A stretch of DNA of 62,262 nt, filler included. It is 9 parts of 9 records of this genome, joined end to end, with 100 filler letters (N's around TTAATTAATTAA, not from the genome) between each part and the next. Parts side by side here need not be neighbours in the genome. Positions count along the whole stretch, not along the records: positions 37,963 to 44,711 come from SRR31147125_20426; 8 more parts are not named here. The stretch is one strand, 5' to 3'. A model generated the notes under the pieces. It was not told where the DNA came from and searched no databases. It saw only the letters and a list, made by a program, of their open reading frames with translations. Positions 6,059-55,648 of this stretch are shown one piece after another (the first letter of the stretch is position 1; each line of letters begins with the position of its first letter). A program made the position numbers and the translations under genes.

Positions 6059-6158
6059 NNNNNNNNNNNNNNNNNNNNNNNNNNNNNNNNNNNNNNNNNN
6101 NNTTAATTAATTAANNNNNNNNNNNNNNNNNNNNNNNNNNNNNNNNNNNNNNNNNNNN
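6059..6158. other. artificial contig spacer (N44-TTAATTAATTAA-N44)
   Basis: Six-frame stop linker inside N runs; the same linker recurs eight times in the window. Confidence 0.98.
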
Positions 6159-11233: not shown

Positions 11234-11333
11234 NNNNNNNNNNNNNNNNNNNNNNNNNNNNNNNNNNNNNNNNNNNNTTAATTAATTAANNNNNNNNNNN
11301 NNNNNNNNNNNNNNNNNNNNNNNNNNNNNNNNN
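11234..11333. other. artificial contig spacer
   Basis: N-run with TTAATTAATTAA. Confidence 0.98.
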
Positions 11334-17194: not shown

Positions 17195-17293
17195 NNNNNN
17201 NNNNNNNNNNNNNNNNNNNNNNNNNNNNNNNNNNNNNNTTAATTAATTAANNNNNNNNNNNNNNNNNNNNNNNNNNNNNNNNNNNNNNNNNNN
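17195..17293. other. artificial contig spacer
   Basis: N-run with TTAATTAATTAA. Confidence 0.98.
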
Positions 17294-18855
17294 NGCCCAG
17301 GACAACCTCGCGGTGGGCATTCCGTGTCTTTTTTGCCCCATGTTGCACAGTTTTGCCAGCAACAATCTGTATCGTTTTTGGCGTCACCACAGTCTCTTGT
17401 ATGGCAGCCGAAAGGTTTAATCAGATGCAAATCATGATCGTTGTTCGGTGTAGACCAATTAAGTTGAATATGGATTGTTTCATCCGGTTTTACTGTAATT
17501 TCAACGATATCCGAGGAAACTCCAGTGCATCCATCATCTGAATCCTTTACTTGTAATTCTACTGTATATGTTCCGGCTGCAACTGCAAAAAATGTTGGAG
17601 TAGGGTAGTCACCATAAACGTCCTGTATTTTTTCATTTCCAACCATCAAGACAGCTCTGTCGGAATGTTCCGGCTTTGCTAAAAACTTCCACTTGTAACC
17701 TAGTATGACGCCATTATCATCGTGAGACTTGGTTCCATCAAGCATTACGTATGTAAGAGGTGATGCGGTCTGATCTTCACCGGCATCAGCAACTGCGCAT
17801 ATTTTCGATTCACCGATTTCAAGACTTACCGAAGTTCTTTGTTCATCTCCATCAATATCCCAAATTACCGTAAGTGTATCGTTAACCGGTGTTGCTCCCA
17901 TTGTCATTGCAACTGTGGCCACAATTCCGTCACCAGGTTTTAGTGGCCAAATCTTTTTGCTATCATCGGTATCGCCGATATAAACCACTTTTTCGACAAC
18001 GTAAGGAGAAGTATCTCCTAAACCAATTGCAAATGGTCTGATAGTTGTATTAGCAGTACCCACATTCTTGATAATCAGGTCTTTCCTGATAGTGTTTCCT
18101 TCAGGAGCTTTCGCAAATTGCATGACCCTTGGTTCGATACTAAGAACCGGTTCCTGTTTTGCAGAAGAAGATAATGCCACTTTAATATTCGGAGCTGCCG
18201 GATCATTTGAGATGACAACGATATCTCCCTTGTCAGCTTGTTGATTTACAGGCAAGTAAAGAGCATAAACAATAGTTGCTCTACCCGGAGGAAGAGTTAT
18301 CGGTAAATCGGCATTATCGAGATGGAATTCCGGACTGCTACCAGGGTTTAACTGAATTAATTCGATTTTAAGATCGACACCTGATTCATTGCAAAGAGTC
18401 AACTCTTTTTCAAGTGAAGAACCGGTAGGAACAGAACCAAACTCCAAAGCGGTTTCACTTGCTTTTATGCGAGGTTCAGTCAAGGAGGAATTAAAATCGC
18501 ATTTTTTCAATTCAAAACTATGATCCATTTCCGGTTCGGCAATTTCGATTTCCGGCACGTCTTTTTCAACGATTGAATCGCCATCGACAGCAACGTCCTG
18601 ATCGAGATCATCGCCATCAGTTGGAATTGTTGTGGAATCTCCATCACTTGGAGTAGTTGATCCATCACCGTCCGGTTGTGGATAAGTTGTACCATCACCA
18701 TCCGGTTGGTTGATATTATCCGTTGAATCGCCATCGGTTTTTGTGTCATCTTCACCAGAACCATCGGAACTGCATGAGAATGCAATGACAGATATTGTTA
18801 AAAACATCATAATGAACAAGAAGGATAAACTGGTTTTCTTCATCTCAAACTCCAC
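17294..18855 (-). CDS. large surface lipoprotein: DGD-rich linker, two Ig-like (ASH/choice-of-anchor-D-like) domains, PKD-like domain; 3' truncated
   Basis: Lipobox AFSC; repeated DGD; LEFGSV...LTLCN, ISNDP; ADAGEDQ...LDGTKSHD, GTYTVELQVKD; LNWS...DHDLHL. Confidence 0.7.
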
Positions 18856-24414: not shown

Positions 24415-24514
24415 NNNNNNNNNNNNNNNNNNNNNNNNNNNNNNNNNNNNNNNNNNNNTTAATTAATTAANNNNNNNNNNNNNNNNNNNNNNNNNNNNNN
24501 NNNNNNNNNNNNNN
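24415..24514. other. artificial contig spacer
   Basis: N-run with TTAATTAATTAA. Confidence 0.98.
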
Positions 24515-31010: not shown

Positions 31011-31110
31011 NNNNNNNNNNNNNNNNNNNNNNNNNNNNNNNNNNNNNNNNNNNNTTAATTAATTAANNNNNNNNNNNNNNNNNNNNNNNNNNNNNNNNNN
31101 NNNNNNNNNN
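31011..31110. other. artificial contig spacer
   Basis: N-run with TTAATTAATTAA. Confidence 0.98.
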
Positions 31111-33554: not shown

Positions 33555-36500
33555 CTATTCAGGCAATCCCGCTCCACGTACTGCATCCATATATGTTTTT
33601 TTGACTTTAAGATTTTTATATGGAAGTCCTTCTTCAAATTTTTTTAATGAGAATGATGGGTTGAGCTTCAACACCTCTTGAGCCTGTATACGGGCGTCTT
33701 CTCCCCTTTCCAGAAGAGAATAGATACTGCACAGGTTAAGGTGAGAAATGAAATTCCTGGGTTGTTCTTTTACGGCCTTTTCCGACCACCTGAGTGCTTC
33801 TTCATAATCACCCCTGCTACGGTACATTGCAGCTAATGCATTTAGTGCCCACCCAGGAGAGATTGGGTTGGATTCAATTGCTTTTTTCATAAGCAGAATG
33901 GCTTTATCGATTTTATCCAGATAAAGGTATTGGTTTGCAACGATAGCAAGTGTATCCGCTCCGCTAGGACTCTTTTCAACGGCTTTCTCCAACTCCGGCA
34001 GACTTTTATCATATTCTCTTTGTTTTACAAAAATGCAACCAAGCAATGCATGGGCGTCACCCAAAGAGTTATCTATGGACAGTGCTTTCCGGGACAATAC
34101 CGCAGCCTTGTTTAGAGATTCCCGAGGCAATTTGGTTGACCCAATCCAGGTATCCATATAGTGGGAGGAACTCAACCACCTATAGGCAGATGCATAATGT
34201 GGATCAAGTTCAATTGCTTTTTTTAATAGCTCTTTGGCTTTCAGATTGTCCTCTATATTAAAATGCCTTAATAGCTCTCTGGCTTCTAACACGAGCAAAT
34301 ACACATCAAGATTGTCCGTGCCCTTAGACCTGATACGTGCCTGCTCCCCTTCTGTTAGTTTTACCTGCAGGGCTGTGATTATTTTCTTGGTGATTTCATC
34401 TTGAAGTGCAAAGAGGTTTTTCTGCTTTCTATCATATTTCTCAGCCCACATGTGATGTCCAGTTTGTGCATCAACTAATTGGGCTGTGATACGAATTTTG
34501 TTCCTATCTTTTCTTATACTACCCTCAAGTATATATCGAGCACCTAAATCCTGCCCTATCTTCTGAATTTTTAATGATTTCCCCTTGTATTTAAATGTTG
34601 ATTTCCTGGAGATGACAGTCATCTTTGGGGTTTTGGAAAGCGCCGTAATAATATCTTCGGTAATTCCATCACTAAAATATTCCTGGGCTGGGTCTTCGCT
34701 CATATTGTCAAAGGGAAGAACAGCTATTGATGGTTTATCCATCAGTGGATCCCGGGATTTATCAGGCAGGCCGGCCTTAGCCAAGGCGTTTATTAAAAAG
34801 TCTCTGTCCTTGGTTTTATTGATAGGCCATTTCTTAATACTTGTTATGCTGAATCCAGGATTCCGTTTAAGTATCTCTTCTGTTTCCGTTTTTGCCTTTC
34901 TATTACGTCCTGACAGCATATATGCAGCAACCAGACGAACACGTGCCGTTTCATCATTCGCATTATTATCAAGAACCTTTTTAAACTTTTCAATCGCCTC
35001 TTCATATCTATCCATAAAAATGTAGCAATGGCCAGCCATTGTTAGGTACCAGTTCAAAGCCTTTGGGTCGAGACGTATTGCTTTATCAAACCATGATAAC
35101 GATTCTTTATATCTTCCTGCGTATGCCAGAGAACGGGCTAAATGAGCTATTGCCAATGAATCTCCCGGGCTGAGAGAAACAGCTTTTTCGCCCTGGGCTA
35201 CCGCTTCATCATATTTCCTTTTAGCTGTCAATATGGCACTTAAGACACAATGGCCAAATGGTGAGAATTCATCCAAAGCAATCGCCTTTTCAGCCAATTT
35301 AGTGGCGATTTTCAAGGAATCCTTGGGTGATTTGCTTAAACCAAAGCGGATACCAAATATATGTGTCCACGCTAAGTCCACGTAGGGCGAAGCAAACCCA
35401 GGATCCAATTCAATAGCCTCTTCGAGGATCTGTCTCGCTTTAAAGCAGTCGTCTTTATTTAAACGTAAAAAAAAATTGCGTCCTTCTGTCCATTTTAAAT
35501 AGGCGTTTAGATCCGTTGTGCTTCTTGTTAAAGCGTATAGTTTTTCTCCCTCAGTCAGTTTCACCTGCAGAGCCGTCATGACATGCATAGTGATTTCATC
35601 CTGAAGCGCAAAAATCTCTTTCAAAGATCGATCAAAGCGCTCAGCCCACAAGTGATTTCCCCTCAGAGTATCAACCAGTTGAACAGTTATACGCAATCTA
35701 TTATCGGCTTTTCTAACACTTCCTTCCAGGACATAACGAATGCCAAGTTCTTCAGCGATTTGTTTAACTTTTACGGACTTCCCTTTGTAATGGAATACCG
35801 AATTTCTTGCAATAACAAACAGATCTGGGATTTTTGAGAACGCATAAATTATTTCATCGGTTAAACCATCACAAAAATAATCCAGGCTGCTGTCACTACT
35901 GATATTGTCAAATGGCAACACAGCAATGGAGGGACCTTCAGGCATTTTATATGCCATATTTTCAATGGAAGCTTGTTCAAATTCAGGCGCCGTGATGTTT
36001 TGGAAGATCTGATATCCTGACATTGTCAGGATGAATGTAGCGATAACTATAGTTGGCCACACCCACGATTTGATTTGTGATTTCGGTTCGTCCCCGATCA
36101 GCGTCCCTGAATCCTTGGGATCCATAAGGATTTTGTAAACCCTTACCGGATCTTTAATGTTCTTTACATTATGCTCACCCATGTATTCATATCCAAGATC
36201 AAGTTTGTTTTTAATTTGATCATACGCATTCCTTGAAATACTGACACCACCAGGCTCAGCAAGACCTTCAATTCGGGCCGCAATGTTTACACCCTCACCG
36301 TACAGACTGTCTTCATCCTGTACGACATCGCCGATATTAATTCCGATACGGAATATTAATTGTTTATCATCAGGAAGCGCTGAATTTTTGTCTTTTAATC
36401 TTTTTTGAATTTCAACGGAGCATTGAACCGCTTCAAAAGCACTTGGAAATTCAGCCAAAATATTGTCACCCGGAGCATCAACGATACGACCATGATGCCG

Positions 36501-36647
36501 GCTAATAATACCTGACATAATCTTCCGGTATTCTTTGAGAATTTTTATGGTGAAGGTTTCGTCCTTTGTCATTAACAGGCTATAACCTTTGACATCGGCA
36601 CTGAGAATGGCTCTGAGTTTTCTTGTAGCTTTCTGTTTTTCTTTCAT
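33555..36647 (-). CDS. class III adenylate/guanylate cyclase, TM helix, two tandem (TolB-N-like + TPR) modules
   Basis: AILSADVKGYS, APGDNILAEF, RIGINIGD, YGEGVNIAARIE; PSIAVLPFDN...YF.DG.T..II occurs twice, each followed by TPRs. Confidence 0.9.
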   Translation of the reverse strand: MKEKQKATRKLRAILSADVKGYSLLMTKDETFTIKILKEYRKIMSGIISRHHGRIVDAPGDNILAEFPSAFEAVQCSVEIQKRLKDKNSALPDDKQLIFRIGINIGDVVQDEDSLYGEGVNIAARIEGLAEPGGVSISRNAYDQIKNKLDLGYEYMGEHNVKNIKDPVRVYKILMDPKDSGTLIGDEPKSQIKSWVWPTIVIATFILTMSGYQIFQNITAPEFEQASIENMAYKMPEGPSIAVLPFDNISSDSSLDYFCDGLTDEIIYAFSKIPDLFVIARNSVFHYKGKSVKVKQIAEELGIRYVLEGSVRKADNRLRITVQLVDTLRGNHLWAERFDRSLKEIFALQDEITMHVMTALQVKLTEGEKLYALTRSTTDLNAYLKWTEGRNFFLRLNKDDCFKARQILEEAIELDPGFASPYVDLAWTHIFGIRFGLSKSPKDSLKIATKLAEKAIALDEFSPFGHCVLSAILTAKRKYDEAVAQGEKAVSLSPGDSLAIAHLARSLAYAGRYKESLSWFDKAIRLDPKALNWYLTMAGHCYIFMDRYEEAIEKFKKVLDNNANDETARVRLVAAYMLSGRNRKAKTETEEILKRNPGFSITSIKKWPINKTKDRDFLINALAKAGLPDKSRDPLMDKPSIAVLPFDNMSEDPAQEYFSDGITEDIITALSKTPKMTVISRKSTFKYKGKSLKIQKIGQDLGARYILEGSIRKDRNKIRITAQLVDAQTGHHMWAEKYDRKQKNLFALQDEITKKIITALQVKLTEGEQARIRSKGTDNLDVYLLVLEARELLRHFNIEDNLKAKELLKKAIELDPHYASAYRWLSSSHYMDTWIGSTKLPRESLNKAAVLSRKALSIDNSLGDAHALLGCIFVKQREYDKSLPELEKAVEKSPSGADTLAIVANQYLYLDKIDKAILLMKKAIESNPISPGWALNALAAMYRSRGDYEEALRWSEKAVKEQPRNFISHLNLCSIYSLLERGEDARIQAQEVLKLNPSFSLKKFEEGLPYKNLKVKKTYMDAVRGAGLPE

Positions 36648-37142: not shown

Positions 37143-37325
37143 ATGAAAGTGATCATCATGTCCAACGAACGAAAAGTCACACGCAAACTCAGAGCCATTT
37201 TTTCAGCCGATGTAAAAGGGTACAGCGTCCTTATGGCGGATGATGAGGCCTCAACGGTTCAGACCCTGAAAGATTACCGGAATATCATGTCAATATGTAT
37301 TAAACCCTTTCAAAATTGCGTGTAA
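37143..37325 (+). pseudogene. truncated N-terminus of a paralogous class III cyclase
   Basis: RKVTRKLRAIFSADVKGYSVLM..DE closely matches the N-terminus of 33555-36647; similarity ends near 37300. Confidence 0.8.
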
Positions 37326-37862: not shown

Positions 37863-37962
37863 NNNNNNNNNNNNNNNNNNNNNNNNNNNNNNNNNNNNNN
37901 NNNNNNTTAATTAATTAANNNNNNNNNNNNNNNNNNNNNNNNNNNNNNNNNNNNNNNNNNNN
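37863..37962. other. artificial contig spacer
   Basis: N-run with TTAATTAATTAA. Confidence 0.98.
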
Positions 37963-38270
37963 GGACCTCCGCTTGAAAAAACTTTCGATGACTGAAACAC
38001 ATTCTCAATAGGAAATTCTTTATTTCTTATTTCGTCATAAAACTTTAGATTAAATGCACTAAGTTTCACACCTAATGGTTGAAGTGACTTTGTAGATATT
38101 TCCAAAACTTTTAATCCGTTAAAGTTTTTGTTAATACTATTGTGCATTGAAGTAATGCATTTTTGCTTCTGTGATTTAGAAAAACCACTAAACCATTCAA
38201 AATCTATAAAGCGTTGGTAGTAAAGTTTTGCTTTGTCAGGTGTGCTTAAAAAACATAACCTTTTTGCCAT
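37963..38270 (-). CDS. DarT1-associated NADAR-like protein (DUF6977-like), 3' truncated
   Basis: FEWFSGFSKSQKQK, LEISTKS, LGVKLSAFNL, ENVFQSSKVF..GG recognised from memory of this family; GGGAGG RBS. Confidence 0.7.
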
Positions 38271-38305
38271 TCATTATCCTCCCATTAATTTGTTATCTAG
38301 ATGCT

Positions 38306-38338
38306 AAGAGTAGCTACACTATATGTAGACTACTCTTA
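38306..38338. terminator. intergenic hairpin (possible terminator or processing site)
   Basis: TAAGAGTAGCTACA-CTATA-TGTAGACTACTCTTA; no good U-tract on the minus strand. Confidence 0.45.
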
Positions 38339-38360
38339 AATATAAAATGACTAGTTTGAT

Positions 38361-38819
38361 TTATACTCCCATTTGATTAAGTCCTTTTGTTGTTTTGATA
38401 TAGTCGAATAAACCAACATAAAATCCAATACTTAATCCGATTGCTAGCATGATTAACATAGATATTCCAGCGGCTTTCGCTCCACGTCTTCCGCCTAGAA
38501 TATAACTAATACCTAAGCCTGAAACAGCAGCTCCTGCCATATCTCCTGCTGTAACGTTTCCATTGCTCATCCATTCTGCAACTTTTAGGAATCCAAAGTA
38601 CCATATATATCCCATAAAATATGCACCGAAGACAGAAATCACTCCAGCAAAAAGGATGCCTATACCTGCTCCAAATCCTGCATTTCCAAAAACTGCAATT
38701 ACAAGTATAGCTACAATAATTCCTTGCATTATAGTGAAAAATTTAGCAAGACTTTTAGCCTTTTGCTTCAAAATTTCAAAGTTGTTTCTCATTTGCTGTG
38801 GTGTGTTTCCTAAGTTCAT
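38361..38819 (-). CDS. Gly/Ala-rich membrane protein of unknown function
   Basis: GAGGAG RBS; about 4 hydrophobic segments with GxxxG/glycine-zipper patterns (GNAGFGAGIG, AGAAVSGLG, IGLSIG). Confidence 0.75.
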   Translation of the reverse strand: MNLGNTPQQMRNNFEILKQKAKSLAKFFTIMQGIIVAILVIAVFGNAGFGAGIGILFAGVISVFGAYFMGYIWYFGFLKVAEWMSNGNVTAGDMAGAAVSGLGISYILGGRRGAKAAGISMLIMLAIGLSIGFYVGLFDYIKTTKGLNQMGV

Positions 38820-38943
38820 TTTACTCTCCTCTAATGATTTATTTAAGATTAAATATACAGTTTTTATACCCCTCCAAATTATTTATATTTTCATCTTATA
38901 TTAATTACTTGTATGTCAAAAAAGATACCTGTTTATTTATTGA

Positions 38944-41900
38944 CTAATTCCAACTTCCGTTAATAATAAATGAATTATAGTCATACCTTGAGAACATTTT
39001 TTGATCAGGATTGTCTTTTTCCTTTTTAACAAGTCCCATATAAAATTCTTTTAAAAACGTTCTTTGCAACATACTATAATTATTTTTTTGCAATAGATTG
39101 CTATGAAATTTAAAACCATCCTGGGTTATGTTAAAATCGTGTATACATTGTTTAATTGTTAAATTTTTCATATAAGTCTTGGTTTGATTATATGCCTGCA
39201 ATTTTGTATAACCCTTACATAATAGTTCATAAAACTTAACCATAAATACATAAGCTGAAAAATCATTAACTTTCCATAATGATGATATAACAGTTTCAAC
39301 TCCTGCCAACTTAAAAGCTCTGTTAAATCCATATAATCCACCACCATAAACGCTATCGCCTAATGCTGATTGACATAATGAAAGTACAACCATATTAGTT
39401 GAAGTATAATCATGTAGACTGATTTCTAAAGCATCTAGATGTATATTATCGAGAGCATTTTTATCATTAGACAGAATGATCTTGCTATTAGTCATAGGAT
39501 TTTGAGATATACTTGGTTTAATATCGATTATGTCGTCAATGCTTACAACGTTGCTATCACTCCTATTTTCATATGTGCCATGAGTGCTAATATGGAGTAT
39601 TGAATATTCATCTTCACCAATGATACTAGACTTGTCAACCTGAATGCCAGTGTGTTGCTTGTACTCAAATTTATTTTGGTGAATCATTTGGCTAATTCTC
39701 TCTACTTCTAAAATAGAAAAAGGAAGCTGCTTGTATCTGTTATCCCTAGGTTCATCGCTACCTCTATGCGGTGCTAACTTGTTTGGAAAAACTGGACTAC
39801 CAACTAAACTAGCATCAAGACTATCAAAATTTTTTTCTATTCGTAATAAGTCTTTAGCAGATGACAAATAAGTTATTTCTTTACCCTCAAATAATTCTAC
39901 AAATGGAAACTTGAATAAAAAGTCATCAGAGCAAATAATTATATGTGTTTTATCATTGATGCTGTTTAATAGAATTTGCATATGTTTCTTAATTCTATTA
40001 AGTATTGCAATATTTTCCTTCTTTATTAATTCAATATCGTCTGCTTCATTCTTGAACTTTATTGAATTAGTAATAATGTTTGTATTTTTAATATATTGAT
40101 CAATTAACGGTACTATATTTGCATCACATTTAACTAAGCTAATTTTGTTGGATGTTATTATGAATAAAACTAACTCGTTGTCATAGCAATAATTAAAATC
40201 CAACAATATTTGCTTTCTACATAAACATGACTGTATATTAGTTAAATAATCTTTTTGTAATGTTTCGCTAAATGGAATGTTTTTGGATATTTCATATCTT
40301 TGTTGTTTTAGCTTGAAAATTTCTGTTTTAAGTTCTCTTTGGCTGCCTATACCATTTTCAGCCTTGTTATTTAAATCCTGTATTTGGTTGTTTAGTTGGT
40401 TTATATTGATTTTACTATCATAAGAAATTTCTTTTGCATAATAATCGACATCTAAAAGCAAAGTTTTGAATAGTAATGCATATTTGTATGCAGTTTTAGC
40501 ATATTTGTCACTAAGAGAAGAGTAAATAACAAGATAGAACTTAAATCTTAGAATCGTTTCATGAATAAAATTATATTTCGCACTATCATTAAATAGGTTA
40601 GTAAAATTATCTTGTAGATAGCATATTGTTTCTTTAAGGTATTTATCTATATAATATAATGCTTTTGGTTCTTCATGTTCATAACAATGCCCATGTATTA
40701 TTGCTAAGTTATGCGTAGCCAACATATTAGCTTTTTTATTGTTAATATCATCTTTAGTTAAATCATATACTTTAAGAAAATTTTTTTCTGCTAATTCTAG
40801 CTTTCCTAATCTCATGTATGCAGTACCAATATTGAGTATAGCATTTAATGTATACTCATGCTTTTCTCCTAGCAAAGAGTAACAGTCAGGGAGAATACTT
40901 TCACCATATGCTATTGCTTCCTCATATTTCTCTTCCTCGACAAGAAAACAGGTCAAATTTGATTGATCTTGTACTACTGCTGGTGTGAGTTCTCCGTATT
41001 TTTTAATCTTCAGTTCTATATTGTGTCTGATTGAATCAATATCCACAATTTGATTATTACATGAATGATCTATTACTGCTTTATTAGATATCCAATCTAA
41101 AACACGTTGATGGCTATTCCCTAGTAATTTTGACCCTGAATCAATGCATACTTGGATATATTCTCTTGCATTATCTAAATCTCCAAGTTCTCGATAAATA
41201 GACGATAAGTCACAATATAATTGTAAGGTTTCAATATTATTGATTCCAAGAAGATTTTCTTTTATTCGAAGCGCAGACTCTTTATATACTCTCGCTTCTT
41301 CAACCTCTCCGTGTTGCAACGATACATTGCCTAAATTAGATAGACTCGTAGCAGTTTCTTTATGGTTTTCTCCAAATACTTTCCTTTTTAGCTCTAAACA
41401 TTCTTTTGTTATTTTTTTTGATTTTTCTAAATATCCACCTGCTCTATATGCTTCTGCTAAATTAGACATAGATAAAAGAGTAGAAGGATGGTTTTTACCT
41501 AATAATTGATTCTTTAAATTGTATGATTTACTCGAAAGTTCAATAGATAATTCGAAGTTTCCAAACTCCATGTATCTTACAGCTAAATTTGTAACAGAAC
41601 TCATTGTAGATAGATTCTCTTCGCCATATAGTGATTTAAGCAGTTCGTATTGCTTTTTATTTACTTCAATCGATTTTTTGATATTGCCATTATCTTTTAA
41701 AGCGAGTGCATAAGTTCCCATAACTCTAAGAGTATTGAAAGCATCTTCACCATATGAAGTCTTTTCCAATTCATAGCATTCTTCAATAATTGCTAAAGAT
41801 TCTGCATATTGACCTAACTCTGAGTAAAGTCCTGCAAGAGTATTCATTGAGTTTAGCGTACTTCTGTGCGAATTTCCTAAATGCTCTCTATAAAAGTCAA

Positions 41901-42567
41901 GACATTCTAATCCTAAATCAAGTGCAGTCTCATAATCTCCCAATCCCTTATACGAAAGAGCAGAAATGTGTTGGCAATCCATTGCATTCACACCTACACC
42001 ATTATAATACGAACAAAACAGTTCATATCCCCCTTTAGATAATTCTAGTGATTTCTTATAATCACCATTAGAGTATATGGAAATAGCGTAATTCTGTAAC
42101 GCTTTGATAGTAACAATATCTTCTTTTCCTAGATTATTTAACGCAAGTAAGTAGGTTTTGTTGCTGAGTTTTACGCCTTCTTCCATGTCTTTTTTCTCCA
42201 AATAAAGACCACTTAGATTTAATAGTGCCATAATAGTCTGTCTATGGTGTTTACCAAATATTTCGCACCGCATTTCATATACATACATTGCACATTTAAG
42301 AGCTTCATCATAATTTGTCATTAAGCTGTATGCATTGTACATGTGTTCTACTACAATGGTGATTTTTTCATCATATATTTCCAACTCATCTAATATCTCA
42401 TAACTCTTATTATTGTATTTTAGTGATTCTATAACATCACCTTGATTCATATACTCATAAGCCAATCTATTTAAAGCTATTGCAACTTCTTCACTATTTA
42501 TGCCATATGTATCTATACTATCTTCTAATTCCTCATATAATTTGTCAATAGCATCACTCATCATCAT
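38944..42567 (-). CDS. TPR-CHAT caspase-like protease
   Basis: Long array of ~42-aa kinesin-light-chain-type TPRs (G..H..T..S..NLA); coiled coil; CHAT domain with ILHISTHG (His), VVLSLCQSALG (Cys), RAFKLAGV, SLWKVND. Confidence 0.9.
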   Translation of the reverse strand: MMMSDAIDKLYEELEDSIDTYGINSEEVAIALNRLAYEYMNQGDVIESLKYNNKSYEILDELEIYDEKITIVVEHMYNAYSLMTNYDEALKCAMYVYEMRCEIFGKHHRQTIMALLNLSGLYLEKKDMEEGVKLSNKTYLLALNNLGKEDIVTIKALQNYAISIYSNGDYKKSLELSKGGYELFCSYYNGVGVNAMDCQHISALSYKGLGDYETALDLGLECLDFYREHLGNSHRSTLNSMNTLAGLYSELGQYAESLAIIEECYELEKTSYGEDAFNTLRVMGTYALALKDNGNIKKSIEVNKKQYELLKSLYGEENLSTMSSVTNLAVRYMEFGNFELSIELSSKSYNLKNQLLGKNHPSTLLSMSNLAEAYRAGGYLEKSKKITKECLELKRKVFGENHKETATSLSNLGNVSLQHGEVEEARVYKESALRIKENLLGINNIETLQLYCDLSSIYRELGDLDNAREYIQVCIDSGSKLLGNSHQRVLDWISNKAVIDHSCNNQIVDIDSIRHNIELKIKKYGELTPAVVQDQSNLTCFLVEEEKYEEAIAYGESILPDCYSLLGEKHEYTLNAILNIGTAYMRLGKLELAEKNFLKVYDLTKDDINNKKANMLATHNLAIIHGHCYEHEEPKALYYIDKYLKETICYLQDNFTNLFNDSAKYNFIHETILRFKFYLVIYSSLSDKYAKTAYKYALLFKTLLLDVDYYAKEISYDSKININQLNNQIQDLNNKAENGIGSQRELKTEIFKLKQQRYEISKNIPFSETLQKDYLTNIQSCLCRKQILLDFNYCYDNELVLFIITSNKISLVKCDANIVPLIDQYIKNTNIITNSIKFKNEADDIELIKKENIAILNRIKKHMQILLNSINDKTHIIICSDDFLFKFPFVELFEGKEITYLSSAKDLLRIEKNFDSLDASLVGSPVFPNKLAPHRGSDEPRDNRYKQLPFSILEVERISQMIHQNKFEYKQHTGIQVDKSSIIGEDEYSILHISTHGTYENRSDSNVVSIDDIIDIKPSISQNPMTNSKIILSNDKNALDNIHLDALEISLHDYTSTNMVVLSLCQSALGDSVYGGGLYGFNRAFKLAGVETVISSLWKVNDFSAYVFMVKFYELLCKGYTKLQAYNQTKTYMKNLTIKQCIHDFNITQDGFKFHSNLLQKNNYSMLQRTFLKEFYMGLVKKEKDNPDQKMFSRYDYNSFIINGSWN

Positions 42568-43204
42568 ACTCCATAAGAGCTATACTATATTTCCCTAATG
42601 AATTTATATCATTAAATATAAATCTGTATTCATCCCATACAATTTCAGAAATGTTGGATGTAACTATATTGCCTTGATGATCTTCTAAAACTATATCAAT
42701 ATCACCTTCTGATAATTGTGTTGTAGGGTGAGTTATCGCAACAACCAAAGCATTTTTTTCTTGTTTAATTGTGCATATATATTCAGAGTTCTTCAATTCA
42801 ACATACACATATTCATTTTTGTTTAAATCCACATCCATTATATTATTATCAACTTCACTTTCCCCTCTTGTAGCACTTACTAATGAGCTAGGAGTAAAAG
42901 CATTATAGTCATTAATAGATGATTGTACTTTTGATACAATCAAACTCATTTTATTAACCTGAGCATTCACAATTTGTATAGCAATATCTGCTAAATTAAT
43001 TTTACTAGCTTTAAATGCCTCAATAGAATCCATTAGTTCTCTAGTTGCCTCATATTTTAAATATGCTTGCTTGCATTTAGGGCATTCATTCATATGTTTT
43101 TGGTCATTATAGTATTTCTCTATTAATCTTATATCGTTTCTGATTTCTAGTAATCCATTATATCTTAATTCAAAATCATTAATATTCAAGCAATTTGTTT
43201 TCAT
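42554..43204 (-). CDS. putative zinc anti-sigma (zf-HC2/ZAS-like) protein with C-terminal beta-sandwich-like region
   Basis: C5...H37MNEC41PKC44; GAGGAG RBS; 3' end overlaps the CHAT gene start. Confidence 0.55.
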   Translation of the reverse strand: MKTNCLNINDFELRYNGLLEIRNDIRLIEKYYNDQKHMNECPKCKQAYLKYEATRELMDSIEAFKASKINLADIAIQIVNAQVNKMSLIVSKVQSSINDYNAFTPSSLVSATRGESEVDNNIMDVDLNKNEYVYVELKNSEYICTIKQEKNALVVAITHPTTQLSEGDIDIVLEDHQGNIVTSNISEIVWDEYRFIFNDINSLGKYSIALMEYDDE

Positions 43205-43244
43205 ATCTATTCGCTCCTCAATATTTGTTTATGAAGTATATCTT

Positions 43245-44396
43245 TTAGAGATTTTGCATTAGTTGCAAATATTTTTGCATCTTTTGAAATTCCTTTTTCC
43301 AATTTACGTTGTCTGCATATACTCCATAATTTTTACCTACATACAATTTATTCAATGGCTCATTATCAGGATAATCATTAATAAAAGTATTGTTATGTAC
43401 TTGTATCATTTTATCTACCATATTTCTGTATTCTACATTATAAGATTTTTTATATATAATATCTCTAGAATACTCATCATCGTTATTAATAAAGTTGTTG
43501 TAAATAGTATAGTTGATGGCTGCTATGTGAAAGGTTTTACCTATATTTCTAAACAAACATTCTACTAAATTTAGACACTGTGAATCATCTTTATTCACTA
43601 TCATGTATTTTAATGTATTTTTAATAATTAAGAATGCTTGTTTAACAGCTTTCTGCTGACTTATATGCATACCATTATCGCCATATTGGCTTGTCTCAAA
43701 AGCAATATTGTCTCCAATAATGTTCAGAGTGCTATTATCAGCATACATTTCTTTTTTGTGTCTATCATCTCTATCATATTGTTCATATTTTTTTGTGTTA
43801 TTAGCTAAGTATAGTAGTGATCCTTTATTCAAACTCATGCCCAATTTATAATTTTCATTAGACATAGCATCAATCCAATCATTTTGATAAATAATATCTT
43901 TTAAAGCATTACTACATAAAGCTATGTTTTTACACGCTGTTTTATAGTTCTCTAATGCATTAAGAGAAATGAACTCTAAAGCATATTGTTGCTTTTTGTT
44001 GGGATTGGTTTCAGATTTCCTTTCGGAAATAACGTATATTTTACCTGTGCAACTACTTACATCAGTGTTAAATATGTTTATTTTTCCTTCGATTACAGTA
44101 TCACTATCATTAAAATTAGGTACATTATTTAAAATTGTATAAAGTCTATCTCTTGTGTCTATGTAGCCATACATCATATTTCTTAGATCTAACAAACCTT
44201 CATAGATAATAAGCCCTTGTTTATAAGATTCTATTTCTAATTTTATATTAGCTCTTTTAGTATCACTTAAAGTAAAGGAGTCTATTGATTTTATTATAGC
44301 TTCTAGTTCATCGATATTATTTTGCAGGTCATTTATATTCCATTTTTTCAACAATAATGGCAGTAAACTATAATGTAGTTTTTCTGTTTTTCTCAT
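43245..44396 (-). CDS. hypothetical protein, possible C-terminal HTH (divergent sigma-like?)
   Basis: 383-aa ORF with GGGAGG RBS and an upstream promoter; the function call rests only on context and NKLYVGKNYGVYADNVNWKKEFQKM. Confidence 0.6.
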   Translation of the reverse strand: MRKTEKLHYSLLPLLLKKWNINDLQNNIDELEAIIKSIDSFTLSDTKRANIKLEIESYKQGLIIYEGLLDLRNMMYGYIDTRDRLYTILNNVPNFNDSDTVIEGKINIFNTDVSSCTGKIYVISERKSETNPNKKQQYALEFISLNALENYKTACKNIALCSNALKDIIYQNDWIDAMSNENYKLGMSLNKGSLLYLANNTKKYEQYDRDDRHKKEMYADNSTLNIIGDNIAFETSQYGDNGMHISQQKAVKQAFLIIKNTLKYMIVNKDDSQCLNLVECLFRNIGKTFHIAAINYTIYNNFINNDDEYSRDIIYKKSYNVEYRNMVDKMIQVHNNTFINDYPDNEPLNKLYVGKNYGVYADNVNWKKEFQKMQKYLQLMQNL

Positions 44397-44436
44397 CTAC
44401 TTCCTCCCATTAGCAATCACGCTATATATCTACACA

Positions 44437-44465
44437 ATTTTACCATATACATTATTTATATGCAA
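44437..44465 (-). promoter_or_regulatory. sigma70-type promoter for the CHAT operon
   Basis: Minus strand TTGCAT, 17 bp, TAAAAT with TGn extension, about 40 nt upstream of the 44396 ATG. Confidence 0.6.
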
Positions 44466-44623
44466 AATCTCAATAATTAAATTAAGGATATTACACGAGT
44501 AAATATTGTTAAATTATAGTGGGGTCGAGGAATCTCGCATTTACTCAACAACTCCTAATATTTTACCATAATCTTGCTGTTGAGTGGTAGCTTTTCTATT
44601 TGAAATTCATAAATAAATATAAT

Positions 44624-44711
44624 GGTTCTGTTGCAAACTTTTTAAAATTCGTTTCACATGTTATAATTATACCAGTTTTGCTGTTGATCGGGGGACTTAA
44701 TAATGATAAAC
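44624..44711 (+). mobile_element. end of an IS6-family insertion sequence (truncated by contig end)
   Basis: GGTTCTGTTGCAAA matches the IS6-family terminal inverted repeat (IS257/ISS1/IS1216 type); then TGtTATAAT, a GGGGGA RBS and ATG at 44703. Confidence 0.65.
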
Positions 44712-44811
44712 NNNNNNNNNNNNNNNNNNNNNNNNNNNNNNNNNNNNNNNNNNNNTTAATTAATTAANNNNNNNNNNNNNNNNNNNNNNNNNNNNNNNNN
44801 NNNNNNNNNNN
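44712..44811. other. artificial contig spacer
   Basis: N-run with TTAATTAATTAA. Confidence 0.98.
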
Positions 44812-46762: not shown

Positions 46763-47827
46763 TCACTCCTGCGCACTCAGCGCCTTGGTCTTTTCTTCCA
46801 TCGTCAGCGCATCAATCATCTCGTTCATATCCCCGTCGATAAACGCCTCCAGCTTATACAGCGTAAGCGATATGCGATGGTCAGTCACACGGCCCTGCGG
46901 AAAGTTATAGGTGCGAATGCGCTCACTCCGGTCACCAGAGCCAACCTGACTTTTGCGGTTTTGCGACATGGCATTGTCCTGTTCCTTTTTTGCAATGTCA
47001 TACAACCGCGTTTTAAGCACCTTCATAGCTTTGTCCTTGTTCTTCAGCTGCGATTTTTCATCCTGACATGTAACGATAAGCCCGCTCGGTTCGTGCGTAA
47101 TGCGCACCGCAGAGTCTGTCGTGTTAACGCTTTGCCCGCCGTTGCCGGACGACCGATATACATCGATTCTTAGATCGTTAGGATCGATCTTGACGTCCAC
47201 ATCTTCCGCCTCGGGCAACACCGCCACCGTTGCGGCCGATGTGTGTATGCGCCCAGAGCTTTCCGTTTCCGGCACACGCTGAACACGGTGCACGCCGCTC
47301 TCATACTTCAGCCGCGAATAAGCCCCCTTGCCGGCAATCAGCAGCGTGATCTCTTTCACACCGCCAAGCTCGGTTATGTTAGACCCCAGCGTTTCAATTG
47401 TATAGCCCGCGCGCTCAGCATACCGCGTATACATGCGCAAAAGGCTGGCGCCAAACAACGCCGCTTCATCGCCGCCGGTGCCTGCACGAATCTCCAGCAC
47501 AACGTTTTTGTCGTCGTTGGGATCCTTAGGAAGCAGCAGCAGCTTAAGTTCTTCTTCAAGCGAAACATTGGCACCCTGCAGCGCATCAAGTTCCTCTTTG
47601 GCCATCGCGGCGATCTCAGAATCGTCATCGTGTGCCATCAGCTTAAGGTCATCCAGTTGCGCGGCGTTGTCCATATATTCATCGTATTTCTGCACGATCT
47701 CGGACATTGACGCATGTTCTTTTATCAGCTTCGTATACAGCTCCTGGTTTTGTATCACGTCGCTTTTAACAAGCTCTGCCTCAAGCTCTAAAAATCTCTC
47801 TTTGTGTTTTGCCAGTTTGTCAAACAT
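46763..47827 (-). CDS. prfA: peptide chain release factor 1 (likely start MFDKL at 47827)
   Basis: [25 protein letters not shown] (PxT motif), [20 protein letters not shown]. Confidence 0.97.
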
Positions 47828-47831
47828 CTTT

Positions 47832-48656
47832 TTATCCTTTTCGGGCAACAACGATACGGTCGCGCCCGGCATAATCCTTTTTATGTGTCACATCCGCAAA
47901 CCCCGCCTGCGTCAGCAGTTTCGCCACAGCCCGTGCCTGCAATGCACCAATCTCCAGCACCAACGCACCACCTTGGTTCAAATACTGCCCCGCGCTTTTG
48001 GCGATAATGCGATAAAACTTAAGCCCGTCATCGGCAACTAGCGCACCCTTTGGCTCATATCGCCGAACGCTGTCATCCAGCGCAGCATACTCAGTGTCAC
48101 TAACATACGGCGGGTTGCACACAATGATATCGTATGTGCCAGTAACGCCGCCCAGCATATCGCTTTCAAAAAAACGCACCTTTGCGCCATTTGTCTTTGC
48201 GTTTTGCTGCGCCACAGCCAGCGCAGCTGTACTGATATCGCACGCATCAACGACGGCATTAGTCTCCGTCGCCAGCGATACCGCGATACATCCGCTGCCC
48301 GTACACATGTCGAGCGCCGATAAGTATCCTTGCTCGCGTATCATATCAATCGCCTGCCCGGCAACCAGCTCTGTCTCGTTTCGGGGAATAAGCACATCCG
48401 GCGTCACATCCAGCACCGCGTACCGAAAATACGCTTTGCCAGTAGCGTACTCCACAGGCTGCCCTGCCGCGCACCGCCTCACCATATCCGTGATATCGTC
48501 GCTCTGTGCCTGCGTCAGCGCCTGCTTGCTCGGCGCCTCCGCCAAGCCACTGCCCAGCGCATGCGCCACGATGACCTTTGCTTTGGCATCCGGTTCTGCT
48601 ATGCCCGCGTCTTTCAGCGTATCTTTCGCGACCCGAAATGCCTCTCTCGCCGTCAT
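47832..48656 (-). CDS. prmC: release factor glutamine methyltransferase
   Basis: [24 protein letters not shown]; adjacent to prfA. Confidence 0.95.
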
Positions 48657-55548: not shown

Positions 55549-55648
55549 NNNNNNNNNNNNNNNNNNNNNNNNNNNNNNNNNNNNNNNNNNNNTTAATTAA
55601 TTAANNNNNNNNNNNNNNNNNNNNNNNNNNNNNNNNNNNNNNNNNNNN
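55549..55648. other. artificial contig spacer
   Basis: N-run with TTAATTAATTAA. Confidence 0.98.

Follow-up and report, generated by a model that had tools for sequence, protein, structure and literature searches.

Bacterial proteases in which a tetratricopeptide repeat (TPR) array is joined to a caspase-like CHAT domain have been tied to the control of extracytoplasmic function (ECF) sigma factors. In Myxococcus xanthus, DdvA carries a zinc-binding anti-sigma (ZAS) domain, a transmembrane (TM) helix and a periplasmic TPR-CHAT part in one chain, and is encoded beside the ECF sigma factor DdvS; its zinc centre (C6, H28, C32 and C35) lies at the helix ends of a three-helix bundle, cleavage of its flexible linker by CHAT is the proposed switch, and its context is defence-related, according to the accessible part of the report (PMC11506125). 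Apart from one Comamonas species, the search described in the same part placed DdvA-like proteins in Myxococcota alone (PMC11506125). In type III-E Craspase, as excerpts of its description have it, the cytoplasmic TPR-CHAT protease Csx29 is activated in an RNA-guided manner and cuts the two-domain protein Csx30, which relieves the inhibition of CASP-sigma (PMC10028731), and in the type III-B SAVED-CHAT/PCaspase systems, again from an excerpted account, a CHAT protease takes part in a proteolytic defence cascade (bioRxiv 10.1101/2023.06.23.546230). In this study, we analysed a TPR-CHAT locus that fills positions 37963-44711 of a 62,262-nt stretch of DNA, hereafter the window, and compared it with these systems. 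The original prediction for this locus was a CRISPR-independent cascade in which the protease acts on an anti-sigma-like partner of a sigma-like factor.

The locus holds five co-oriented minus-strand open reading frames (ORFs), as predicted, and a GGAGG-type ribosome-binding site stands before each of them. In the order of transcription they are as follows.

43245..44396, minus strand: ORFan of 383 amino acids (aa), called from its ORF and ribosome-binding site; soluble; in the slot that the sigma gene takes in sigma/anti-sigma operons.
42554..43204, minus strand: 216-aa zinc-motif protein; soluble; predicted helical N-terminus, linker and C-terminal beta-sandwich.
38944..42567, minus strand: 1207-aa TPR-CHAT protein with Pfam CHAT and TPR_12 matches; cytoplasmic caspase-like protease.
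38361..38819, minus strand: 152-aa Gly-rich membrane protein, assigned by hydropathy; candidate effector or unrelated gene.
37963..38270, minus strand: N-terminal 102 codons of a DarT1-type NADAR gene (Pfam PF22397), cut by the contig end.

ORFs as long as those without a known family would hardly arise by chance in this AT-rich DNA (P ~2e-16 for 383, 1e-9 for 216 and 6e-7 for 152 codons). The gaps between the genes, in gene order, are 40, -14, 124 and 90 nt, the negative value reflecting the overlap that had been claimed between the second and third genes: the stop of the 216-aa gene and the start of the CHAT gene share 14 nt. One public DNA sequencing run, possibly the source, contains this DNA, and no RNA run is listed for it. 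The other assembly, from this DNA run, places the stretch in a contig of 12,115 bp, which extends 5.36 kb past the NADAR end and differs from the present one by one extra base at 38299, which is intergenic, and one extra T in the T-run after 43293. The latter difference alters the last ~16 residues of the first ORF, which then has 396 aa and stops 2 nt short of the 216-aa ATG. Should this be the correct version, the first three genes would form a single packed translational unit.

Tentatively, and with rather less than even confidence, we take these three packed genes as one unit that encodes a proteolytic switch: a TPR-CHAT protease that is cytoplasmic and stands alone, together with a ZAS-like partner. 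In such a switch, the TPR array would keep the protease inactive until a protein ligand is bound. The activated His996/Cys1065 site would then cut the co-translated 216-aa partner, most likely in the linker at residues ~99-119, and the cut would part a zinc-bound helical N-domain from the beta-sandwich C-domain, freeing whatever the partner holds. Candidates for the output are the ORFan, the Gly-rich membrane protein encoded downstream, and a sigma factor whose gene lies elsewhere.

Assignment of the 1207-aa protein as a TPR-CHAT protease with an intact dyad is supported by family matches and alignments. Residues 871-1135 match Pfam CHAT (PF12770) at 113.6 bits (cut-off 24; E = 1.6e-32), and TPR_12 matches in eight stretches (E = 2.6e-54), which places the TPR array at residues ~30-640; past the array lie a helical linker, the CHAT domain and a C-terminal extension. 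The predicted His/Cys pair is indeed in place, with H996 and C1065 invariant in alignments of 13 and of 63 sequences. No TM, signal-like or hydrophobic segment was found in the protein. A hydrophobic N-terminus is present in 110 of 120 CHAT relatives, but it is absent in the two best ones, P0001 and P0011, and thus the 1207-aa protein belongs, like these two, to a small cytoplasmic subgroup.

The CHAT protein is divergent, its closest relative P0001 showing 32% identity over 48% of residues 640-1207. When the CHAT domain was compared with solved chains at E<=10, one chance-level capsid match was returned alone, and Csx29, DdvA and separase did not appear; searches of the PDB with the whole protein or its profile returned TPR proteins only. 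CHAT searches gave no match in genome contigs and none in viral contigs, and a search with a two-sequence alignment had an Acinetobacter TPR protein as its sole match. Translated searches of plasmids (tblastn) yielded 51 records, all below 60% identity and mainly cyanobacterial. The two records from which L004 (Acetoanaerobium) and L002 come, loci that are considered below for their NADAR genes, also lacked a CHAT match. A cluster look-up returned no names for the CHAT relatives. A complex prediction for CHAT residues 430-1207 with the 216-aa protein returned a score of 0.00, which is no answer and counts neither for nor against an interaction.

In the 216-aa protein, the HxxxCxxC motif noted in the original prediction reads HMNECPKC (residues 37-44); together with Cys5 it makes up C5...H37xxxC41xxC44, a CHCC-type pattern. 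HxxxCxxC arises in 0.072% of 50,000 shuffles, and its start at residue 37 compares with starts at residues 27-68 in 29 ORFs that have a Pfam zf-HC2 match. No TM or signal-like segment was found. For comparison with the ZAS class, a custom profile was made from 29 sequences: zf-HC2 matches were present in 31 of the 121 genomes searched, 30 loci were retrieved, and all but one of these gave a motif-bearing ORF. On this profile the 216-aa protein scored 9.3 bits, as compared to 1.8 bits for the best of 400 plain shuffles. Since 23 of 1000 shuffles in which C5, H37, C41 and C44 were held fixed also reached 9.3 bits, the likeness to ZAS beyond the motif is modest. In a protein atlas of language-model neighbours, the protein lies beside unnamed Bacillota clusters (score 0.97), and 12 of its 30 feature hits fall in the zf-HC2 set (best 0.94, with 206 of 256 features shared), in which the cluster concerned has zf-HC2 in 22% of its members.

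The AlphaFold2 (AF2) model of the 216-aa protein has helices over residues 8-98 at low confidence and strands over residues 120-212 at a predicted local distance difference test (pLDDT) score of 60-82, and the stretch ~99-119, which has neither helix nor strand, joins the two parts. In this low-confidence model two helices, a short one at 35-40 that contains H37 and another at 42-65, are separated by a break that holds C41, and C44 falls close to the beginning of the second. A structure search with the model gave generic beta-sandwiches, the best at Z 8.7 (CrdA) and TRAF/Ig-like folds at Z 6-7, all within the common range of the tool. On this evidence the N-domain is probably a ZAS-like zinc bundle, and binding of zinc and of a sigma factor would be the properties predicted for a member of the ZAS class.

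The same motif, profile and atlas evidence also suits a different arrangement: the 216-aa protein would be a genuine soluble anti-sigma factor of the ZAS type, and its target a canonical sigma factor whose gene lies outside the contig, in the host genome or in the flank. In that case CHAT would release this sigma factor, and the ORFan and the membrane protein would be accessory or unrelated. DdvA and Csx30, as far as the accessible parts of their reports go, show that TPR-CHAT proteins can be wired to ECF sigma control, and the 5.36 kb of flank beyond the contig leaves room for a sigma gene. However, the 6.7-kb contig has no sigma gene, although anti-sigma genes usually adjoin the gene of their own sigma factor, and ZAS membership of the 216-aa protein is unproven. 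We regard this arrangement as unlikely.

Returning to the switch with a ZAS-like partner, we find its closest concept in DdvA. Going by the available text on DdvA, both have an anti-sigma-like N-domain with a CHCC-type zinc motif and the same order of ligands, linked to a TPR-CHAT part with a conserved His-Cys dyad. Unlike DdvA, however, the two parts here are separate soluble proteins with neither a TM segment nor a fusion between them, and whereas DdvS is encoded adjacent to DdvA, the upstream gene here has no sigma features. The layout may thus be viewed as a split, soluble echo of DdvA. With Craspase, as excerpted, the locus shares a cytoplasmic TPR-CHAT protease and a partner of two parts, the latter seen in the 216-aa model and described for Csx30. 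In contrast to Craspase, no Cas7-11, CRISPR array or recognisable ECF sigma factor was found on the contig, and Csx30, with 565 aa, is much longer than the 216-aa partner and is not described as ZAS in the accessible part of PMC10028731. The locus may work like DdvA or like Craspase, but it fails the defining features of both and is assigned to neither. From the SAVED-CHAT systems, as known from the excerpted account, it differs in that the contig has no SAVED domain and no second caspase gene. Borvo (BovA) is a single-gene anti-phage defence system with a CHAT domain. The BovA match of the 1207-aa protein in PADLOC (E = 3.8e-5, 20.9 bits, profile positions 510-691 of 711) is weak and partial, at the level of a shared CHAT domain and short of full length.

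The first gene of the unit is the hardest to place. The 383-aa protein had 0 relatives among 1.84 billion representatives and none in a word-index search, the PDB or viral contigs, and it has no Pfam, PADLOC or PHROG family and no usable atlas match. Pfam, with Sigma70_r2, Sigma70_r4 and ECF included, had no match to the whole protein at E<=1 or to its halves at E<=10. A cleaned ECF profile, made from eight Pfam-verified sigma ORFs that sit upstream of ZAS genes, gave no row for the protein (296 of 500 shuffles do get one), as compared to 68-268 bits for five of the seven left-out upstream ORFs that served as positive controls. Its AF2 single-sequence model is unusable (pLDDT 34), and many strands are predicted at this low confidence. 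A match to TIGR01209, 'RNA ligase' (E = 0.0026), was rejected as chance because its 16.6 bits compare with a cut-off of 136.9.

What speaks for a sigma role of the 383-aa protein is position alone. The gene order mirrors that of sigma factor, anti-sigma factor and protease, the first two genes are tightly packed in the other assembly, and 15 of the 29 zf-HC2 genes have an ORF of 187-214 aa directly upstream, eight of the ten checked being ECF sigma factors. In the cascade first proposed, the 216-aa protein would act as an anti-sigma factor that keeps the 383-aa protein, a new sigma-like transcription factor, bound until the CHAT cut frees it. This proposal has to be set against the failure of the Pfam and ECF profile searches, the many predicted strands, the lack of homologues, and a length twice that of an ECF sigma factor. 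It is very unlikely in our judgement, and the sigma-like character once claimed for this protein finds no support here. We give hardly more credit to the fuller version of the scheme, a split, soluble, CRISPR-free switch of the DdvA type on a mobile element of a low-GC Gram-positive bacterium that releases the 383-aa ORFan as a new effector or transcription factor. This version would represent an immune circuit that leads from a caspase to transcription or from a caspase to the membrane.

Several points weigh against the switch as a whole. Neither the 383-aa nor the 216-aa protein has a homologue in any search made; co-occurrence of the three core genes in other genomes, by which the original prediction was to be judged, is a test that therefore cannot be passed. 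Pfam zf-HC2 (PF13490) misses the 216-aa protein, also when residues 1-70 are searched at E<=10, the alignment to the custom profile spans the motif and the next helix only, and the N-terminal part of the fold model has a pLDDT below 50. HxxxCxxC occurs in 0 of 120 CHAT relatives, so that no fused form among them backs a split. PADLOC gives the partial BovA match alone and PHROG gives no family match for the contig proteins, so that a defence role is purely contextual. Finally, the other assembly holds 5.36 kb of real flank beyond the 6.7-kb contig. The anti-sigma-like reading of the 216-aa protein is accordingly kept in part: the motif, the custom profile and the atlas are weak but convergent, whereas a Pfam zf-HC2 match and an adjacent sigma gene on the contig are both missing.

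In a further alternative, the genes are merely neighbours. Many bacterial CHAT proteases are uncharacterised, and HetF is an example with a regulatory or housekeeping role. By analogy, the CHAT protein here might have other substrates and such a role, the CxxC might belong to a structural zinc ribbon that has nothing to do with sigma control, and the 152-aa and NADAR genes might be a separate remnant module. The gaps of 124 and 90 nt before the last two genes fit this view, as do the absence of the DarT that normally pairs with NADAR from upstream, the lack of a defence-family match beyond weak BovA, and the lack of conservation evidence. On the other hand, that the 216-aa and CHAT genes overlap by 14 nt speaks for their co-translation, and the motif, its position and the profile score together exceed chance. 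We consider mere neighbourhood rather unlikely, although it deserves more weight than either of the schemes built on a sigma factor.

As for the purpose of the proteolytic switch, conflict or defence is most likely, because of the very low GC content, the IS-like (insertion sequence-like) end, the neighbouring gene of the NADAR antitoxin family and the singleton genes. If the 216-aa protein is a ZAS-type partner of a soluble TPR-CHAT protease, the wiring of protease to anti-sigma factor known from DdvA and Craspase would extend beyond Myxococcota and CRISPR loci, to a cytoplasmic form with separate genes. Our literature search, which covered articles without their supplements (table S7 of PMC11506125 among the latter), found no description of a split soluble pair of ZAS and TPR-CHAT proteins. 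The presumed substrate is also of a length that would lend itself to simple cleavage assays. With a single contig and two singleton genes behind it, the case should be treated as a starting point for bench work rather than as a discovery.

The two genes downstream of the CHAT gene were also largely as predicted. The Gly-rich membrane protein has 152 aa, 16.4% Gly and 3-4 hydrophobic segments; it has no family, and no relatives were found in plasmids, phages or metagenome contigs. The NADAR-like gene matches Pfam NADAR-DarT1 (PF22397) with E = 2.3e-34 over profile positions 1-100 of 212. DarT lies directly upstream of NADAR in all three loci examined, L002, L003 and L004 (Lactococcus pIL105, a Xanthomonas plasmid and Acetoanaerobium). 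In contrast to such DarT1-NADAR modules, the locus described here has the NADAR-DarT1 domain with no DarT before it, and the gene of the Gly-rich membrane protein occupies the DarT slot. The NADAR gene at 37963-38270 may encode an orphan antitoxin, for which counter-defence against DarT from a mobile element is one possible role; alternatively, its partner may be encoded in the flank. Its best matches are in Bacillota, at 55% and 53% identity, and these together with the ribosome-binding sites point to a low-GC Gram-positive host; the locus is probably on mobile DNA of such a bacterium. In Acetoanaerobium, four co-oriented ORFs of 659, 282, 248 and 407 aa (L004, 184-4990) stand upstream of the DarT-NADAR pair. 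By eye, the 407-aa ORF combines a long coiled N-terminal part with a C-terminus that resembles DarT, and the whole group may be a larger defence cluster.

Two signals were found at the upstream end of the contig.

44437..44466, minus strand: candidate sigma-70-type promoter from a promoter scan, TTTGCA-18-TAAAAT with TG, ~40 nt upstream of the first gene.
44624..44637, plus strand: 14-nt IS6-family-like terminal inverted repeat, with one exact match in the window.

The promoter scan performed at chance level (47 found as compared to 46.8 expected), and the single promoter asserted for the operon is not confirmed by it; one promoter for all five genes is plausible but not shown. No intrinsic terminator was predicted on the contig. 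The consensus used for the repeat is one that we take to be that of the IS6 family, and 9 of 100 shuffles yield at least one match to it when one mismatch is allowed. Past the repeat, an ATG at 44703 opens an ORF that is cut after three codons by the contig end. No blastn match to this end region was found in plasmids or phages. A repeat boundary would also account for a 56-nt record, separate and of higher depth, at 44682-44711. An IS6-type end at 44624-44637 is thus suggestive only, and the description of the locus as IS-flanked shrinks to a single IS-like end.

The surroundings of the locus in the window call for caution. The window consists of nine contigs with GC contents of 0.29-0.50, joined by eight artificial 100-nt spacers, each made of N's around TTAATTAATTAA.

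6059-6158, 11234-11333, 17195-17294, 24415-24514, 31011-31110, 37863-37962, 44712-44811 and 55549-55648: artificial 100-nt spacers.

Positions 37963-44711 are exactly the seventh piece, one whole contig of 6,749 bp with a GC content of 0.294, and the adjoining pieces (GC 0.418 and 0.501) are unrelated contigs. The GC steps at its edges, which had been taken for the borders of an AT-rich island, are joins to these contigs. Because the locus is one contig between artificial spacers, the island with sharp borders is an artefact of concatenation. More generally, island signals in the window, such as GC jumps or an IS at an edge, stem from pasted contigs, and any feature that spans or abuts a spacer join is an artefact. 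Within the 6.7-kb contig itself, no cas-type family and no repeat array were found, in agreement with the original prediction, and no Rfam family was found either. The whole contig had no match among plasmids, and a 30-mer of it had none among metagenome contigs.

Some genes on the other pieces may be mentioned. Contig 8 (GC 0.50) clearly stems from a different organism than the AT-rich contig. By eye, it has a release-factor-1-like ORF with a GGQ motif at 46763-47872 on the minus strand, followed by a methyltransferase-like ORF at 47832-48656, also on the minus strand. On contig 6, an ORF of 1030 aa at 33555-36647 on the minus strand appears by eye to encode an N-terminal nucleotide cyclase domain and then two repeats of a TolB-like/TPR module, and a second ORF at 37143-37325 has an N-terminus that by eye resembles that of the 1030-aa ORF.

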